Shown here piece by piece: positions 379-17,665 of a DNA stretch of 19,674 nucleotides. Below the pieces are notes generated by a model, which did no database searches, had not been told where the DNA came from, and was given only the letters and a program-made list of their open reading frames with translations. This DNA is from Paraspadella gotoi. Lineage: Eukaryota; Animalia; Chaetognatha. Position 1 is the first letter of the stretch, and each line of letters opens with the position of its first letter. Location of the stretch: positions 1 to 19,674 of the forward strand of contig JBJCIZ010001206.1 in NCBI GenBank assembly GCA_051294375.1. Reading direction: 5' to 3'. The position numbers and the translations under genes were made by a program.

Positions 379-809
379 TCCTATTTTTCTTTCCTTTGTT
401 CTTTTTCTTTTTTTCCTTTCTTTTCCTCAGTCTTACATCCTCACTTTTTGGATATTTGCGGTCTTTTTCCATTTTTTTTTATTAATATTCTTTAGTTTAA
501 TTTTCTTGTTTTCGTCAGCATCCATATGTCTTCATTCTATGTTGTTTGCACGGGTTTACTTCTTGGCACTTTTTCTTAATCTTCATTCTTTTTGATTCAT
601 TTCCCTTTTCCCCCTTTTATTGTTTACTTCTTTTTGACCTCCTGAAATATCTTGGGGCCAGTTTCCCCTTTCCTCTTTTTTTCTTGGGCTCCGCGTCGCT
701 CGCTCTCCTGCACTTTTACGATGTCCGATTCCTATAGTATAAGGTTCTTGTTCTATTCCCGGTCATAATCCTATCTGTGAGGTCTTTTACGGGGCATTTA
801 CTATCCGCT

Positions 810-1127
810 TCACTTGTATTAAAATCACTTTTCATAAAAATCACTTTTATTAGAAGATCAATTTTATTAGAATCACTTTATTGAAGATCACTTTATTAAA
901 ATCAACTTTTATTAAAAATCATTGTGTTAGAATCACTTTATTAAGATACTTTTATTACATAAATCATTTAATTAGGATCACTTTATTAAAAATCACTTTT
1001 TATTAAAATCACTTTTATTAAAATCACTTTATTTTAAGAATCACTTTATTAGAATCACTTTATTAAAATACTACCTTTTAATAAAATCACTTTTATTAAA
1101 ATCACTATTTTATTAAAATCACTTTTT
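810..1127. repeat. Minisatellite, ~14-16-bp unit TTATTAAAATCACTT(T), roughly 20 units
   Basis: Head-to-tail repeats of tattaaaatcacttt with variants such as tattagaatcacttt. No spacers. Confidence 0.9.
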
Positions 1128-1146
1128 CAATCTGGCCAATTACTCT

Positions 1147-1190
1147 CTCCAGTCTTCTGAGGCGTGGGTTCGAATCCACACCATCTGCCA
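1147..1190 (+). pseudogene. 3' half of a tRNA-Leu (anticodon-stem 3' strand, long variable arm, T arm, acceptor 3' strand)
   Basis: ctccagtcttctgaggcgtgggttcgaatccacaccatctgcca closely follows the eukaryotic tRNA-Leu(AAG/TAG) 3' half CTCCAGTCTCTTCGGAGGCGTGGGTTCGAATCCCACCGCTGCCA. B-box GGTTCGAATCC at 1167-1177. No D arm or anticodon upstream. Confidence 0.8.
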
Positions 1191-1205
1191 CCTCAAAAAT
1201 AGGTA

Positions 1206-1995
1206 TGAGTCGCGGCAATTGCGCTAGGTTCACCCCGCTTAAGCATAACCACCTTCAGTCTGGACCGGTGCTCATTGAGCTTACAGCCATCAGCTCATGT
1301 ACCACTAGGTACCGGTTCAAGTTCCAAACCTCGGACCTACCCTGTGGGAAACCGTTGAGGACGGCCGATAACCGCCTTGGGGTGCGTGGCACACCCATCA
1401 AGCCTGGTTCCAAACCCAGGACCCGGTTCCATGGCTTACTGAAGGGAGGTAGTGAAAGTACATTAGTCAAATACTTTAAGTTCAAGAACACACTTTACGC
1501 ACTAACCACCATCAGTAGAACTAAATTTTAAGAAATTAATTTTTGTTAATTTTCAGTAGGAAATTTATATGATATACTTATAAATCAAAATTGAAAATAG
1601 CTTATCTAATTACCAATATGCAATATTTGTTCTGCAAGTTAGTAGAAATATATCTAACAGTTGTGTTAAATTTCTTCTCATTAAGTTGAGTTAATCGATA
1701 AAACGAGAAGTATTAAAGTAAATTTCATTTATATAGCCTGTTCTATTATGACACTAAGAAGGAATAAAAAGGTACTCTCTAACTTTTATGACGTCCAAAC
1801 AAAAAACTGACCTTCGATTTAACATTGTAGATCTTATAGTGGCTATGCGATATGTAAATTTATGTTTTTTAACAAATGTTCTAGTAATGCTCGTCTCCAA
1901 GTTAGATTTTCTTAATTATAACTTACGAATTTTATAGCCTTACTGCTACTAAAGTTTAGTTACGGATGCTCTTCACCCACCTAGCCCTTATCACA
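1206..1995. mobile_element. 790-bp insertion with TG...CA ends, absent from copy B (solo-LTR-like or other non-autonomous element)
   Basis: Copy A reads aaaataggta[tgagt...atcaca]gtagacagag and copy B reads aaataagtaagtagacagag. The insert is flanked by GTA/GTA. It has no microsatellites, and its composition differs from the flanks. Confidence 0.7.
1243..1517 (+). ncRNA. Candidate structured RNA domain inside the insertion
   Basis: Stems found by eye: 1252-1259/1438-1445, 1261-1272/1308-1319, 1276-1281/1292-1297, 1329-1334/1355-1360, 1376-1384/1392-1402, 1403-1407/1416-1420, 1437-1459/1492-1517. G-U pairs favour the plus strand. Confidence 0.45.
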
Positions 1996-2074
1996 GTAGA
2001 CAGAGATTCGAGACGAAATCTAAGTGGATTTTATTTTTCAGAAATAGATCTTATACAAACGTGTCAATATTTGC

Positions 2075-2190
2075 GGCAGAGTGAATTCATTACAGTTGGT
2101 TCCAAATTTCTACAGCTCATCTGGATCGGAGGTCAGGTAAAATTCACGGCGGGGAAGCCAGTCGATCATTGTCGTGATTTGTCTCTGCCA
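2075..2190 (+). other. 116-nt imperfect fold-back closed by GGCAGAG/CTCTGCC-A
   Basis: ggcagagtgaattcattaca pairs with tgtcgtgatttgtctctgcc, gttggttcc with ggaagccagt, and atctgg with tcaggt. Confidence 0.45.
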
Positions 2191-2756
2191 CATGAGATGT
2201 TCATGCCCGTGTCTTGATGATTTAGTTTAGATTAGATTCCTTTGCGAATGATATTTCTATTCGCATATTTTAACTTGATGATTTTAATTTATGTATTATT
2301 ATCTTAATTTAATATTATTAATATATCCGCCGCGCTCCTTGACCTTACTTTACCTTACTCTCGCTGGCTCCACTACCTGCCTTGCCCCACACTGACCCGC
2401 CCGTCTCACCTTTGACGTTTGGCTAAAATCGCCTGACTCGTATTCGTTCGCGCCTGACTTTCGTCTGTGCCATCGGGGCGAAGAGAGTAATAGGAAGAAA
2501 AGGAGGAAAGAAAAAAAAAGGAAAAAAGGATCTTAGAAAGTAATAAAAACGAAGAAAGAAAGAAATGAAAAAAAATTATCTAGGAAGAAGAGACAAAATG
2601 AAAAAAAAGGAAAAGAGAGAATAAAGGAAAAAAAAAAGAAAGGAAAAATAATAGAAAGGAAAGAAGCCGAATGGAGGCGGAAAAGGAAAGAAAAGAGTTA
2701 TCTATGTTTTCAGGACTTTTCCTCCTTTAACTGCTTCAAGTATCGTCTTTTCAAAG

Positions 2757-3006
2757 CAGAGAGAGAGAGAAGGATAGAGAAAGAGAGAGAGAGAGATGAG
2801 AGAGAGACGAGAGAAGAGAGAGAAGAAGAGAGAGAGAAGAGAGAAGAGAGAGAGAGAGAAAGTTATTTAATGTCTTCTAGCAAAGATGTCTCACCTTTGG
2901 AAGCAAGAGAACAAAAATACACGCAGATTCAAATAACGTTTTTCTTTGTTGAAAAAAATGAGAAAGTATGTTTACACTTCCTCGGCTTTTCAATTTAATT
3001 AGTGGG

Positions 3007-3064
<58 letters not shown>

Positions 3065-3237
3065 CGAGCTGACGCGTTCGGTCGTAGTTTAATCTCGTTT
3101 TCAAGTTATATCTTTTTTTTTCTCTCTTCTTGTTGCCTGTTAACTGCGTGATAGGCTGCTACAATTCATGAGCGATAAATTGTGATGAAACAAGCGCTCT
3201 CTTAATCTCTCTCTCTCTCTCTCTCTCCTCTCTCATC

Positions 3238-3275
<38 letters not shown>

Positions 3276-3300
3276 TATCTCTCTCTCCTCCTCTTCTCTC
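2757..3300. repeat. Cluster of (GA)n and (TC)n microsatellites (~2757-2858, 3007-3062, 3207-3300)
   Basis: Direct reading. Counterparts lie at ~7415-7480, 7634-7710 and 7864-7950. Confidence 0.95.
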
Positions 3301-3824
3301 TTTCATCCTGATGTATAAGAAGGGAATTGATACAAATCACGAGTTTCTCTCGATTCAATTACAGTGAGTCTTCTTGGGAGAAAAAGTGATTATGTGAATG
3401 AAACATGAATCAACCCGTCCTGCTCGTCTGGCGAATATATTAATTCACATTTGGCGTATGAGTTATTAATTTATCATTTTGATTTTTCATGGATTTGTAC
3501 TCTTTCGCTGTCGACGTAATTCGATTGGCCTCTTTTCTTATTTTGTATGTATAAACAATTTAGAAAACACGTGACATTTTAACTTTTTAAATCTTGTTTT
3601 CTTTTGGCCATACAAGATCAGTAGTCGTTTAAAAAAACTTTTTTTGGTCTCTAAGCCTTAAAAGTTAAAAGTTAAATATTATTGTGATGAGAACCATAAA
3701 TGTGAATATATTCTAATTTTAATAATTATTCTTTTGCCGAAGAATTTCAGCTGCTTGCGATGGTCGCTCAAGAGTCTTCAATATTTTTCTTTAATCAAAT
3801 CCAAACAAACAAACATTTTATGAG

Positions 3825-3874
3825 TCTCTCTCCCTCCCTCCTCCACCTCCCCTCCTCTCTCTCTCTCTTTCTCT

Positions 3875-3951
<77 letters not shown>

Positions 3952-3977
3952 CTTGCTCTCTCTGTCATCTCTCTCTC
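3825..3977. repeat. (TC)n microsatellite
   Basis: Direct reading. Counterpart at ~8519-8670. Confidence 0.95.
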
Positions 3978-4627
3978 CTATTTGAAAGTCTTCCAGAAAA
4001 TACAGCTCATAATTTTATGAAAGTACAAGAAAAAATAAGGAACCGAGGTTTTGCAAAAATGTTTGCAGAAATTTTGCAGAATCGTCGCCAAGAAAAACTA
4101 AAAATAGATTTTTTTCTTCTCTTCTCAAAACTGAAAATCAACAGAAAAAAAATAATCAGAAAAAAAAAGTGTATGGAAAGAAAATATAGAGGGAGCACTT
4201 CCAACTCTGAGGATATATCCTCTCCCACTCTCTCTCTCTTTCTCTCTCTCTCTCTAGTTTTGCATTAAATGTCGCTTATTTATTCAAAGTCCACTTTGTC
4301 TTTCATTACCTCTTCCGCTCCTCAGTTCAAAAAACCCCGCCAGTTATTTTTGTTATTGTTGTTATCTTTCCGCTTTCGCAATCTCACGCAGCCCAAGGGG
4401 GCGGGGGGGAGATTGAGTGTGACCACAGCCTCGTTTTCGCCGGCGATGCTCGCGCCATCTTTATCTCTCCCTGAGGATTTCTCCGCCGGCGACGAACAAT
4501 GCACAACGGACCTTTTGTTTGCCTCCCATGCGTTCGTTACTCTCTCTCTGTCTCGGTCTCTCTCTCCCATCCCATTTATGCAAATGAAATCCTGATTAGA
4601 TTTTTTTCCATTTATACATAACACGTT

Positions 4628-6107: not shown

Positions 6108-6265
6108 CTTGGCCAGTTTTCCCCTTTGCCCTCTTTTTTCTTGGCTCGCTCGCTCGCCTCCCTGCATTTTTTCAACCGTCCGATTCCTATATATATTTCT
6201 TTTCTATTCCTGCCGGTCTAGTAATCCTATCTGGTGAGGTCTTCACGGGCCATTTACTATCCGGT

Positions 6266-6419
6266 TCACTTTATAAAATCACTTTATTAAAAATCACTTT
6301 TATAAAATTCACTTTTATTAAAATCAACTTTTATAAAATCACTCTATTAGAATCCTTATAATAATCAGCTTTATTAATAATCCACCTTGTTATTAAAAAT
6401 CACTTATTAAAATACACTT
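6266..6419. repeat. Minisatellite TTATTAAAATCACTT, shorter array (~10 units)
   Basis: Same unit as 810-1127. Confidence 0.85.
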
Positions 6420-6440
6420 CCAGCATCTGCCAATGTATCT

Positions 6441-6488
6441 CTCCGTCTCTTCCCTGGAGGCGTGGGTTCGAATCCCACGCCTCTGCCA
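6441..6488 (+). pseudogene. 3' half of tRNA-Leu, copy B
   Basis: ctccgtctcttccctggaggcgtgggttcgaatcccacgcctctgcca, with an intact T arm GTGGG-TTCGAAT-CCCAC and a B-box at 6465-6475. Confidence 0.8.
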
Positions 6489-6499
6489 CCTCCAAATAA

Positions 6500-6553
6500 G
6501 TAAGTAGACAGAGATTTCGAGACGTAACTCTCAAGTGGGATTTATTTTTTCAG
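6500..6553 (+). other. Candidate 54-nt spliceosomal intron
   Basis: GTAAGT donor and ttattttttcag acceptor. Copy A has a ctaag branch-like motif and the same acceptor ending at 2041. Confidence 0.4.
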
Positions 6554-7883
6554 AATAATAGATCTCTTATTCAAGACGGGTCAATATTTGCGGCAGAGTG
6601 AGATCAAATACAGGTGTTGGGTGTCCAAGTGTGTGTGAGCGTGTGATTCGGATCGGAGGTAAGGGTTAAAATCACCGCGCGGGTGGAGAACCATCGGATT
6701 CATTAGCACGGGTTGCCATTTGTCTCTAGCGCGTGGTCTTTACAATGAACGCCTAAATCCATCGTGCCCGTGTCGGTTGATCCGAATTTTAGATTTGAGA
6801 TTTGATTAGGATTCTTAGCTCGACTGATATCTCTATATTCGCATTTGATTTAATTGGAACTGATTTTATTTATTGTATTTAGTTATTTAATTTAGATATT
6901 ATTAATATACCGCCGCCTCCTTGACCTTACTTTACCCTTACCTCTCGCTGCTTCCACTGACCTGCCTTGCCCCACAACTGACCCGCCCAGTCTCACCTTT
7001 GACTGTTTGGCGCTCAGATCGCCTGACTCGTATTCGGTTCGCCGCCTGACTTTCGTCTGGTGCCACATCGGGGCCGAAGAGTTAATAGAGAAGAAAGATA
7101 TAGAGGAAGGAAAGAAGAACTAAAGTAAGAAAAAAGAAAAAAGGATCTTAAACATAATAAAAACGAAAGAAAGAACAGAAAGGAAAATGAAAAAAAATTA
7201 ATCTGCAGAAAGACGAAAATGAAAAGAAAGAAAAGAGAGAATAAAGGAAAAAAAAGAAAGGAAAAATAAAGAAAGGAAAGAAGACGAATGGAGCGGAAAA
7301 GGAAAGGAAAGAGTATCTTGTTTTCAGGACTTTTCTCCTTATAACTGCTCAAGGTACGTCTTGGCAAGCCAGAGAGGAGACGAAGGGAGAGAGAAGAGGA
7401 CGTGCCCCAAGGCGATGAGAGAGAGAGAGAGCGAGAGAAGAGAGAGAGAGAGAGGAGAGAGAAGAGAGAGGAGAGAGAGAGAAGTTTTTAATCGTTTTCT
7501 AGCAAAAGATGTCCACCTTGAAGCACAAGCAGAACCAAAAATAAACCGCAGATTCAATAACGTTTCTGTGTGTAAAAAAATGAGAAAGCTAATGTTTACA
7601 CTTCCTCGGCTTTTCAATTTAATTAGTTGGGGGGAGAGAGAAGAGAGAGAGAAGAGAGAGAGAGAGGGAGAGGAGATGAGAGAGAGAGAGGAGAAGAGAG
7701 AGGGAGGGAGAAGACGAGCCGCTTTCAGGTTCTAGTTTTAATCTCGTTCTTCAATGTTATATCTTTTTTTTCTTTCTCTTTTGTTCTGTGTACTGCCGTG
7801 TAGGCTGTACAATTCATGAGCGATAAATTGAGAAAAAGACGCCTCTTTCTCTTATCATCTCTGCTCTCTCTCGTCTCTCCTCT

Positions 7884-7932
<49 letters not shown>

Positions 7933-8567
7933 CTCCTCTTCTCTCTCCTTCTCCTGAGTATCAAGAAGGGATTATCTGAGCATACAATCACGAGCTTTCT
8001 CTCGATTCACGATTACAGTTGAGTCCTTCTTGGGAGGAAAAAAAGTGAATTATGTATGAAGAAACATGAATCACCGGTCCTGGCTTCGTCCTGGCGCGAA
8101 TATATTAATTCACATTCTGGCGCGATGAGTATTAAATTTAATCATTTTTTGATTTTCGATGGATTTTAACTTCTTTCGCTGTTCGAGCCCGTGTACTATT
8201 CGAATTGGCCCTCTTCTTATTTGTAGTGTCATAAACAATTTAGGAAAACACGTGACATATTTAACTTTTTAAATCTTGTTTTCTTTTGGTCCACTACAAG
8301 ATCAGTAGTCGTTTTAAAAAAAACTTTTTTTTCGGTGTCTCTAAGCCTTAAAAGTGTAAAAGGTAAATATTATTGTGATAGAGAACCATAAATGTGAATA
8401 TATCATTATTTAATAATCTATTCTTTTGCCGAAAGAATTTCAGTGCTTGCCGATGGTCGCTCAAGAGCTCATTCAATATTTTTCGTTTAATCAAATCCAA
8501 ACAAACAAACATTATGAGTCTCTCTCCCCTCCCTCCCCTCCCCTCCTCTCTTCTCTCTCTTTCTCTA

Positions 8568-8635
<68 letters not shown>

Positions 8636-8929
8636 CTCTCTCTCTCTCTTGCTCTCTCTGTTCTCTCTCTCCCTATTTGAAAGTCCTCCAGAAAAATAAC
8701 AGGCTCATAATTCTTATGAAAAGTACAAGAAAAGTCAGAGGAACGAGGTTTTGCAAAAATGTTTGCAGAAATTTTGCCAGAATCTGTCGCCAAGAAAAAA
8801 CTAAAAAAATAGATTTTTTCTTCGTCTTTCGTCCAAACGAACAAATCACACAGAAAAAAGAAATAATCCAGGAAAAAAAAAGTGTATGAAAGAAAACTAT
8901 AGAGGGCACTTCAAACTCTGAGGATAATA

Positions 8930-8932
8930 TCT

Positions 8933-9030
<98 letters not shown>

Positions 9031-11785: not shown

Positions 11786-11830
11786 AATCGACAGATTTTG
11801 CGGAAAAATTTTCCGCAAAATCTGTCGATT
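11786..11830. repeat. Perfect palindrome, 22-bp arms and a 1-nt spacer
   Basis: aatcgacagattttgcggaaaa-a-ttttccgcaaaatctgtcgatt. Confidence 0.97.
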
Positions 11831-12656: not shown

Positions 12657-14286
12657 AAAAAAAAAAAAAAAACGACTCTTTCCACTATTGTTCAGTTGTT
12701 ACTTACAATGATGATTAACTTTGTACCACAAACACCATTAGCGAGCGCGACGAAGGATTGGTTAAGAAACAACTCCACCCGTTTCTAATGATAAAATAGT
12801 ACCATTTTGGCAAATTTAGCCAAAAAAATTATGTCCATTTTTGTCCATTTTTACTTACGACTTCTGATTTGAATGCCAAGGAAAGTTGAGAAAATTTTTT
12901 TACTTTGGAAATCCGTTCTTTCTTATCTTCTTTACCTCTGGGTAAATTTATTAGCTTAAATCATTTATAGTTTGCCTATGAATTAATTTTAAAGTTAACA
13001 AGTCAAAAAGTTGGAGTTTCAGTCTTTATCATAATTTTTTAAACAAAAATAAATCAAATTGGTTGAAATTAAAGAAAAATATAGCCTATTGAATAAGCTT
13101 TTAACACCTATAAAATTATCAAAAAACTTTTTTGGTTTTAGCCACAAATAATTTTTAAAGACGTCTTTTAATTTGTGACTTTTGTGACTTGCATTTATTT
13201 TTGATATAAGAGAATATTTTTCAACTCATTTATTAGTTTTTAAAAGATGAGGTACATCTGACCTTGATTAATTAAAAAAAACCCGCATCCTTTTAACCAA
13301 ATGGGAAAGCGTCAGGACTTGTTTTTTCTCAGAATCGACAGATTTTGCGGAAAAATTTTCCGCAAAATCTGTCATGTTCTAAAATTTGCTAGTGGTTCAT
13401 ACCAAATTTGAAAATGCAAAAACAATTGATCATGCGCTACCGTTTCATTTTCTTTTCTTATAATGAATCAAAAGGAATTTTCATTGATTTGATTCAATCT
13501 AAATGAAGAAAATAAGTGATAAGAAAGAGGAAGGGAGAACAAGAGAGGAGAGGGAAGGGGAAGATGAGAGAGAATGAGGTGAAAAAAGGAAAAAGAGAAG
13601 GCAAAGGGGATAAAAGTAGAGAGATAAAGATAAGGCGCGGGAAAGAGAGGGGGAAAAATTTAAAGAAAAGAAGGGGAAAGAAAGGAAGGAAGGAATAAGA
13701 GAAGAAAAAAAAAAAGATAAGGGAAATGGGGAAGCACGGCAGCATAGAAGAACAGGGTAGGGGTGTGACGTGGGAAAAAAATGGAAAGTGAGGTCGTGAT
13801 ATGAAAGGGAGGAAAGAGGGTTAGAAAAAATGAAAAGCTGTGAAGAAGAAAGAGAAAGGTAACGAGAAAGAAGTAATAACAGAGAGGATTATGAGAGGAA
13901 AAAAAAATGGTAACAGATATTGCTGTGATGTCTTTTCTGATATGTTTGCCTCTAAATAAATAAAAGATTACAAAAATTATTATAGGGAATTCGATCTTTT
14001 AAAAGTTTCTTGTATGTACCATGAAAATTCATACATACTTTTTTTTTTTTTAACAACTAAGGAAGTTAATGAGATTAGATTGATAAGCAATCGAAAGAAA
14101 ATCGTTGTCTTACCCCGTCATTTTTTAACTCATAGTAGATTTTATTTGGGCACACGTACTATGTCATAAGAGGAAGATAATATAGGACCTACCGTTTTTT
14201 TTTCAACAATGAAAGAAAGATTCATACTATAGTCCAAATCGCTGAGCATCATCAGAGACATGAACGATAAATTTAAAGTGTTCAGA
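12657..14286 (+). repeat. Tandem duplication, copy 2 (right of the gap; insertion-rich after ~13375)
   Basis: Colinear with 11125-12630. Confidence 0.95.
13337..13373. repeat. Second copy of the palindrome (18-bp perfect arms)
   Basis: gacagattttgcggaaaa-a-ttttccgcaaaatctgtc. Confidence 0.95.
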
Positions 14287-16890: not shown

Positions 16891-17246
16891 TGAAAGGGAA
16901 TGGTTTAGCGCTGGTGCGACAAAGAGAAAAAGAAAAAAAAAAGAAAAATTATAATCGGATTAAAAATAAACTAAATGTGAAACGAAAATCGAAACATTTT
17001 AAAATGTAAACGGATTTTAGATTTAAAAGAAAAACTGTAGATGTTTAAAAAAACAAAAAAAAACATAATGCGATTTAAAAAATATGGTTAATTCGAAGAA
17101 AAAAAATTATATCCGCTTGAAAAAAAAAGACTTAAGAAAATCAAATAAGAAAAGAAAAGAAAAAGAAGAGAAGAAAAAAAAAATCTTTAATTCAATTTTT
17201 AGTTGTAGAGGAATTTGAAAACCCACGAGTTATCAACTTCAGCCCC

Positions 17247-17313
17247 ACTGCTTCGTCAAATTTCTCTCTATTTCAGGTCTACTGCTTCGTCAAATTTCTC
17301 TCTATTTCAGGTC
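17247..17313 (+). repeat. Perfect 33-bp tandem duplication (period 34) containing a pyrimidine tract and CAGGT
   Basis: actgcttcgtcaaatttctctctatttcaggtc at 17247-17279 and 17281-17313. Confidence 0.95.
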
Positions 17314-17665
17314 ATCACCTTTTTTTCTCTTTTTTTTCTCTTTTTTTGTTGACTTTCTTTTAATCTGCTTTTTTTCAATTTCCCCCTTTCTGTTTTAAAT
17401 TATATAAATTATATTATATATTATTTATTATATATAATTATATTATATAAATTATATATATATATTTTTATATTTTCACATTAATTCATCGACCGGTGGT
17501 CGGGGTCTTTTAAAAATTTTATTTATTAAATTTGATTTTTTCCGCTAAAGCCTAAAGTTTAAAATCTAATAAATATTCATTGTTCTTTTCTCTTTTGATT
17601 TTGCTTTCGTTTTTGTCCCGCTTACGTTTAAGTTTAAGTTTGAAATTCTTTATCTAAATTTTTAA

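Follow-up and report, generated by a model that had tools for sequence, protein, structure and literature searches.

Three copies of an 18-base motif behind a predicted RNA switch: possibly the ends of a small CACTA-like transposon carried in a 789-bp insertion

The question raised by this locus is whether the segment at positions 1243–1529 specifies an RNA that alternates between two structures, as the original prediction proposed, or whether its internal repeats arose in another way. The window, i.e., the whole stretch of 19,674 nucleotides that was analyzed, contains an 18-base motif that was found three times inside a 789-bp insertion, twice forward and once inverted. Motif copy 1 (1244–1260, plus strand) begins with CATA and forms the 5′ strand of the closing helix in a first predicted fold (fold A); motif copy 2 (1437–1454, minus strand) ends with TAGTG as read on the plus strand and is the segment able to pair either way; and motif copy 3 (1500–1517, plus strand) begins with CACTA and is the partner in a second predicted fold (fold B). 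All of the coordinates and letters of the original prediction were confirmed, including the direct repeat 1246–1259/1503–1516 (13 of 14 bases identical, spacing 257), the complementarity of 1437–1454 both to 1243–1259 (−18.3 kcal/mol) and to 1499–1517 (−18.5 kcal/mol), and the first T4 run after the start of the insert (1526–1529, plus strand), a possible Pol III stop, with a T5 at 1540.

Two near-equal folds were also obtained as claimed, of −84.5 and −82.4 kcal/mol when one or the other partner was blocked; they differ by approximately 2 kcal/mol, and the pair probabilities were split about 0.52/0.48. The two-way pairing score, calculated on a segment picked after the fact, was 6.25 on the plus strand versus a shuffle mean of 1.15 and was reached by none of 100 shuffles, while the score on the minus strand was unremarkable (reached by 58 of 100). 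Shuffling reproduced the direct repeat alone in 6 of 150 cases and a crude score for three copies in 8 of 100. By the time motif copy 3 is made, fold A is already complete, with an estimated barrier of 12–14 kcal/mol, and the 1437/1517 helix of fold B contains four mismatches (A-A, G-A, A-C, and G-A) and no G-U pair. The split between the folds shifted between 0.15/0.70 and 0.52/0.48 depending on where the folded segment ended. When a read error of 4% was simulated in 60 copies, both states kept a probability of at least 0.2 in 11 of them, one state exceeded 0.8 in 28, neither exceeded 0.2 in 1, and 20 were in between. In these simulations, the predicted balance is fragile at the error level of this assembly.

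The folding of the whole region was better than that of shuffled sequences to a modest degree, and similarly on both strands (z of −1.86 on the plus strand, 6/200 shuffles; −1.92 on the minus strand, 10/200). The values for 1243–1455 were −2.9 on the plus strand (0/100 shuffles) and −2.3 on the minus strand, the domain interior (1260–1436) gave −1.0 (15/100), and DNA folding parameters gave −1.9 on the plus strand and a better −3.3 on the minus strand. The proposed 12-bp stem 1261–1272/1308–1319 was recovered with three G-U pairs and no mismatch (z of −4.4 on the plus strand and −1.3 on the minus strand). The hairpin formed by it (1261–1319, plus strand), with an upper 6-bp stem and a 10-nt loop, is the best supported of the region and, in the folding models, its only clearly plus-specific structure. 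The claim that G-U pairs work only on the plus strand was correct for this stem and failed for the rest, since the best folds of 1243–1455 contained 6 G-U among 70 pairs on the plus strand and 9 among 75 on the minus strand.

The GC-rich interior (1320–1436, plus strand) forms several short hairpins, and its fold is ill-defined except at 1378–1397. Two of the hairpins predicted here proved to be minor, namely 1329–1360 (outer pairs at a probability of 0.07–0.12) and 1403–1420 (0.23–0.49); the third, 1376–1402, lost its outer pairs (at most 0.02) and kept its inner eight (0.68–0.95), which make up the stable 1378–1397 hairpin. A 17-nt direct repeat is also present in this interior (1321–1337/1407–1423, 15 of 17 identical), and the GC content of the RNA region, 56.4%, is the highest of any 250-bp segment of the window. 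The possible pseudoknot between the loop segment 1285–1290 (plus strand) and 1431–1436 was no better than chance: the letters match, but 467 of 5000 shuffles held a 6-base loop complement, and five of the six partner bases were unpaired at a probability of only 0.03–0.25, being mostly paired elsewhere.

The window is AT-rich and microsatellite-rich, with one gap of N, and contains no convincing gene and no long coding frame under code 11 or 6; we infer that it is a eukaryote scaffold assembled from noisy long reads. The locus lies in a repeat present at 656–4258 (repeat copy 1) and again at 6111–8972 (repeat copy 2) with approximately 80% identity. The insertion (1206–1994, no strand assigned) is missing from repeat copy 2, where its flanks, 656–1198 and 1995–4258, abut directly at about 6497–6503, and comparison of the flanks defines an empty site at 6497–6510 (plus strand) without target duplication. 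The RNA region had been placed inside an insert, and the empty site bears this out; a deletion in repeat copy 2 instead of an insertion is possible. The left third of the insertion is GC-rich and the remainder AT-rich. The right-flank alignment of the two repeat copies spans 597 columns with 454 matches and 18 substitutions, and extra bases number 14 in repeat copy 1 versus 111 in repeat copy 2; therefore, repeat copy 2 resembles a raw insertion-rich read, and repeat copy 1 is cleaner, not clean.

Several other repeats were observed in the window. A 15-bp AT-rich unit is arrayed in tandem at 810–1126 (about 20 copies) in repeat copy 1, directly before a tRNA-like 3′ half, and with fewer units at 6266–6420 in repeat copy 2. 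Just before repeat copy 2, segment 5959–6107 has a 69% inverted likeness to 14483–14288, a similarity in sequence which suggests that the repeated unit may extend further than its two copies here. Around the N gap lie long duplicates, inverted and direct (8930–11131/16875–14744 and 11125–12620/12666–14273, 89–91% identity), likely assembly redundancy or large repeats. Two near-identical 34-bp units at 17246–17315 both end in a run of pyrimidines plus CAG, resembling a 3′ splice site present in duplicate, and the MITE-like palindromes ATTTTGCGGAAAA...TTTTCCGCAAAAT occur with recurring TTTGCA words at 11797–11822, 13338–13367, and 4050–4080.

The tRNA-like 3′ half (1147–1190, plus strand) lies outside the insertion and consists of a variable arm, a T arm, and an acceptor strand, with a B box at 1167–1176, no 5′ half, and no T terminator. 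It is present in both repeat copies (the second at about 6440–6490), gave a weak phage tRNA match, and is presumably Leu-like. No whole tRNA was found in the window by ARAGORN, and no good A box was found. Possible identities for this half are the head of a SINE, a relic of integration, and, on the minus strand, an extended primer site. A further observation concerned splice-like signals. The empty site (6495–6505) reads as the 5′ splice consensus AG/GTAAGT, which the insertion splits, and the insertion boundaries (1199–1208 and 1940–1996) show AG/GTATGA on the left, a pyrimidine tract and CAG on the right, and a branch-like TACTAA near 1945. Therefore, splicing could remove the insertion from a transcript, were one made by Pol II.

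The reading that we prefer, and hold tentatively from the sequence, is that the three motif copies represent the two terminal inverted repeats that bound a small, CACTA-like DNA transposon, plus an orphan second end. A non-autonomous element of 211 bp, its CACTA-type terminal inverted repeats imperfect, would occupy 1244–1454; a second element, whose right end may have been lost, would have its left end at 1500–1517; and both would be carried within the larger 789-bp insertion. A transposase provided in trans would bind the two ends and cut and paste the element, leaving a 3-bp duplication (AAG), and the CATA of motif copy 1 would be a CACTA that has lost one C. Along the plus strand, the motifs are ordered as left end (1244), right end (1454), and left end (1500), and they share a boundary, with CACTA at 1500, TAGTG at 1450–1454, and CATA at 1244. 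The probability of CACTA/G at a given position is 0.0024, or about 0.7% if the position may shift by a few bases, for a match spotted after the fact, many motif families having been tried. Inward from 1244 and 1454, the ends stay alike in inverted orientation over about 30 bases, interrupted by a 5-base gap. A candidate 3-bp target duplication, AAG, precedes motif copy 1 (1241–1243, plus strand), and AAAG follows motif copy 2 (1455–1458, plus strand), which equals AAG only with one extra A. En/Spm-type elements are defined by CACTA ends, subterminal repeats, and a 3-bp duplication (PMC8978399).

Transposon ends would account for the orientation of the motif copies, their boundaries, the strand-symmetric folding, and the non-wobble mismatches of the 1437/1517 helix, and the polymorphism of the insertion between the two repeat copies supports them. 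They would also produce the two predicted RNA folds, since the right end can pair with either left end on one strand with no need of selection for switching. Hence, a side effect of transposon ends is the more probable origin of the two folds, ahead of a functional RNA switch. Against this origin, the motif repeats agree in only 14 of 18 positions, no intact CACTA is read in motif copy 1, one indel has to be assumed for the duplication, and motif copies 1 and 3 are alike for 5 bases beyond the CACTA boundary (4 of 5). No right end for motif copy 3 was found in the window at up to 4 edits, nor any further copy of the 211-bp element. A search for subterminal arrays of 10–20-bp repeats gave one 17-nt pair, and the enrichment of short words was not significant (101 and 282 of 500 shuffles). 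Given the post hoc match, the 14/18 repeats, the missing partner end, and the null word enrichment, the locus is not filed as a CACTA member.

A separate observation was made in the surrounding repeat, where repeat copy 2 reads CACTACAAG at 8292–8307 and repeat copy 1 reads CATACAAG at 3611–3625. The former reads CACTAC versus CATAC in the latter, the same one-base difference as at 1244, which, together with the noise of the assembly, counts for the transposon reading. We take CACTACAAG to be like an Spm-type end, and this likeness is probably due to chance.

The weights given to the different readings are our judgement from the tests run. A transposon leaves the plus-specific 12-bp stem and the 56.4% GC unexplained, and for this reason a structured non-coding RNA with one working fold, which we regard as doubtful, stays the first rival. 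In such an RNA, the 1243/1454 helix would close a plus-strand domain with the 1261–1319 hairpin and perhaps the pseudoknot, motif copy 3 would be incidental, and transcription by Pol III would possibly be driven by the upstream tRNA-like B box and stop in the T run at either 1526 or 1540. The stem itself and the completion of fold A before motif copy 3, behind its estimated barrier, argue for it, as does the plus-strand z of 1243–1455, which is set against the value on the minus strand and the poor interior. The B box at 1167 would provide part of a promoter, but it is outside the insertion and has no good A box; the pseudoknot is at chance level with its partner occupied, and no Rfam match was obtained. 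It is unlikely, and less probable again, that the region has no function at DNA or RNA level and is GC-rich filler or degraded mobile DNA whose short words are local copies. The shuffle frequencies of the direct repeat and the three-copy score, the whole-region z of about −1.8, and the choice of this region out of 19.7 kb are in agreement with chance and local duplication, but several moderately unlikely features occur together within 290 bp.

A true two-state RNA is improbable on the folding models. In its most specific, retrozyme-like form, the two antisense copies would hide a hammerhead-like core at 1433–1482 (plus strand), whose folding could be no more than brief. The two-way score above all 100 shuffles, on the plus strand only, agrees with it, but the dependence of the split on the segment ends and its loss in most error-perturbed copies do not, and two near-equal folds are expected anyway because any sequence with one inverted and two direct motif copies predicts them. 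The core fits a relaxed type I hammerhead pattern with a 6-bp stem I, CUGA, GAAA, and a 4-bp stem III; any relaxed match was found in 5 of 600 shuffles, and in 1 of 1000 with thresholds tuned to this match. The strict pattern is absent; A9 is replaced and helix II is reduced to one G-U pair. Published hammerhead cores require CUGANGA (PMC8557442). Folding disfavors the arrangement (stem I probability of at most 0.012), and the window contains four other relaxed matches, two of them copies of one repeat. The 256-bp repeat spacing falls within the size range of metazoan retrozyme monomers, described in PMC7229834 as 220–350 nt and tandem, but no tandem monomers are present here. As a self-cleaving candidate, the core is a lead only, suggested by its sequence. 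Transposon ends, acting at the DNA level, account for the repeats at least as well.

The most ambitious version is very improbable: a self-gated ribozyme switch on a eukaryotic retroelement, in which a mobile insertion behind a tRNA-derived Pol III promoter carries an RNA of 280 nt and of no known class, whose non-canonical hammerhead-like core (no A9, no helix II) is locked in turn by one or the other of two antisense copies. If the locus is instead both transcribed and conserved, its RNA would belong to none of the 4227 Rfam families; to our knowledge, eukaryotic mobile elements rarely carry natural two-state RNAs or hammerheads of non-canonical type. Least probable of all is membership, after divergence or decay, in a known family, either RNase MRP/P RNA or a DIRS internal complementary region, and this was largely refuted. 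The AGCC/GGCU pseudoknot lies beside the closing helix, as P4 beside P1, and by eye its AG..CC/GG..CU pairs and an A two bases later fit the published P4 pattern (PMC1796607). However, the best P4 match at 1100–2100 on either strand had 6 deviations versus 2 allowed and was not at this pseudoknot (a broken pair counting as 2 deviations; consensus from PMC1796607 and PMC2996960). Inspection by eye showed no bulged U, gaa, acnnnan, CR-IV, or GARAR, and Rfam gave no match to this family at E up to 10. The insertion shares with DIRS elements the lack of a target duplication (PMC8969392), but no long terminal repeats were found, and the internal complementary region suggested by the original prediction was not recovered: neither insertion end has a significant complement inside the insertion (286 and 54 of 300 shuffles scored as well).

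Additionally, relatives of the locus were searched for in databases. Rfam returned nothing at the gathering score in the whole window, and only chance-level matches at E up to 10 over 1000–1800, 1225–1475, and 1700–2100. Pattern scans detected 3 loci in metagenomes, 0, 2, 9, 13, and 1 in viral contigs, and 10 in prokaryote genomes, and none of these 38 was meaningfully alike beyond the pattern itself. Plasmids and phages gave only short matches (E 0.07–0.9), Pfam gave no family at the cut-off in 10 frames, and no protein homologues were found for the open frames of either strand. Two protein matches among representatives were rejected as sums over tandem repeats at 21–27 bits each. The abalone protein P0001 contains about 35 tandem 56-residue repeats and then an RNase H-like domain at residues ~1955–2100 (RVT_3, E 0.03), and is probably a mis-annotated retroelement fragment unrelated to the locus. 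A literature search with six short locus motifs, with most subscription papers and supplements outside its reach, returned no description of the locus. A look-up of sequencing runs for 1120–1600 listed none, a result that carries no weight on expression. The repeats and the predicted two-fold ensemble are real, with no evidence of function.

Other RNA classes were compared with the region. An HDV-like nested double pseudoknot gave no match on either strand with a relaxed descriptor, and no convincing match was found to group I, group II domain V, C/D box, Sm site, or telomerase template motifs. A tRNA-like reading of 1311–1431 and a permuted hairpin-ribozyme loop B at 1458–1494, both noted by eye, were dropped, as the required helices do not form. 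The likeness to RNase MRP/P lies in the AGCC/GGCU pairs and in a closing helix whose 3′ side is immediately preceded by a pseudoknot strand, whereas CR-I, CR-IV, CR-V, and GARAR are lacking and the 5′ pseudoknot strand is here in a hairpin loop. With the type I hammerheads of Penelope-like elements and non-LTR retrozymes, the locus shares the order stem I, CUGA, GAAA, stem III, UH, stem I and a repeat spacing near 250 nt; it differs in the replaced A9, the missing helix II, the single copy, and the disfavored fold. The minimal hammerheads of Penelope-like elements, as described in PMC6155905, lack helix III and not helix II, whereas 1433–1482 lacks helix II.

Regarding the insertion as a whole, it resembles non-autonomous Helitron2/Helentron elements in the insertion without target duplication at a T^T site on the minus strand, and in an asymmetric inverted repeat (8 of 9) with a palindrome near the 3′ end, a combination reached by 162 of 5000 shuffles. 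In Helitron2, as PMC3627910 describes, the 5′ copy of the asymmetric inverted repeat is 0–2 bp from the end and in a hairpin; for a repeat expected to be 8–15 bp, the 5′ copy of the insertion is 8 bp from the end with no hairpin over it, and the site is not T-rich. The repeat is also shorter than the 11–15-bp subterminal repeats of HINEs (PMC4067079). An unconstrained comparison of the insertion ends remained at chance level (307 and 419 of 2000 shuffles). Examined as a solo LTR, for which TG...CA ends and a 4–6-bp duplication were expected, the insertion begins with TGA, a TCA stands one base short of its end, and both AGTA copies are already in the empty site. Its position, 15 bp behind the tRNA-like end, is inside the 8–23 bp behind a tRNA gene that is reported for Skipper-2 in PMC5006619. 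As in the DIRS1 internal complementary region, an internal segment is complementary to two other places and no target duplication is present. That region consists of two adjacent parts complementary to the two element extremities (PMC7192593 and PMC8969392), whereas here the same 18 bases pair with both partners and the partners are not the insert ends; the long inverted or split direct terminal repeats of DIRS1-like, PAT, or Ngaro elements were absent from the insertion.

Finally, compared with non-autonomous CACTA (En/Spm) elements and MITEs, the element at 1244–1454 differs in its CATA left end, its 14/18 repeats, the lack of significant subterminal arrays, its length of 211 bp only, and the extra unpaired left end 45 bp away. 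It resembles them in its inverted CACTA-type ends, the near-match of a candidate 3-bp flanking duplication, the lack of coding capacity, and the fold-back on both strands. The best reading is one of ordinary mobile DNA, in which three transposon ends can mimic an RNA switch.
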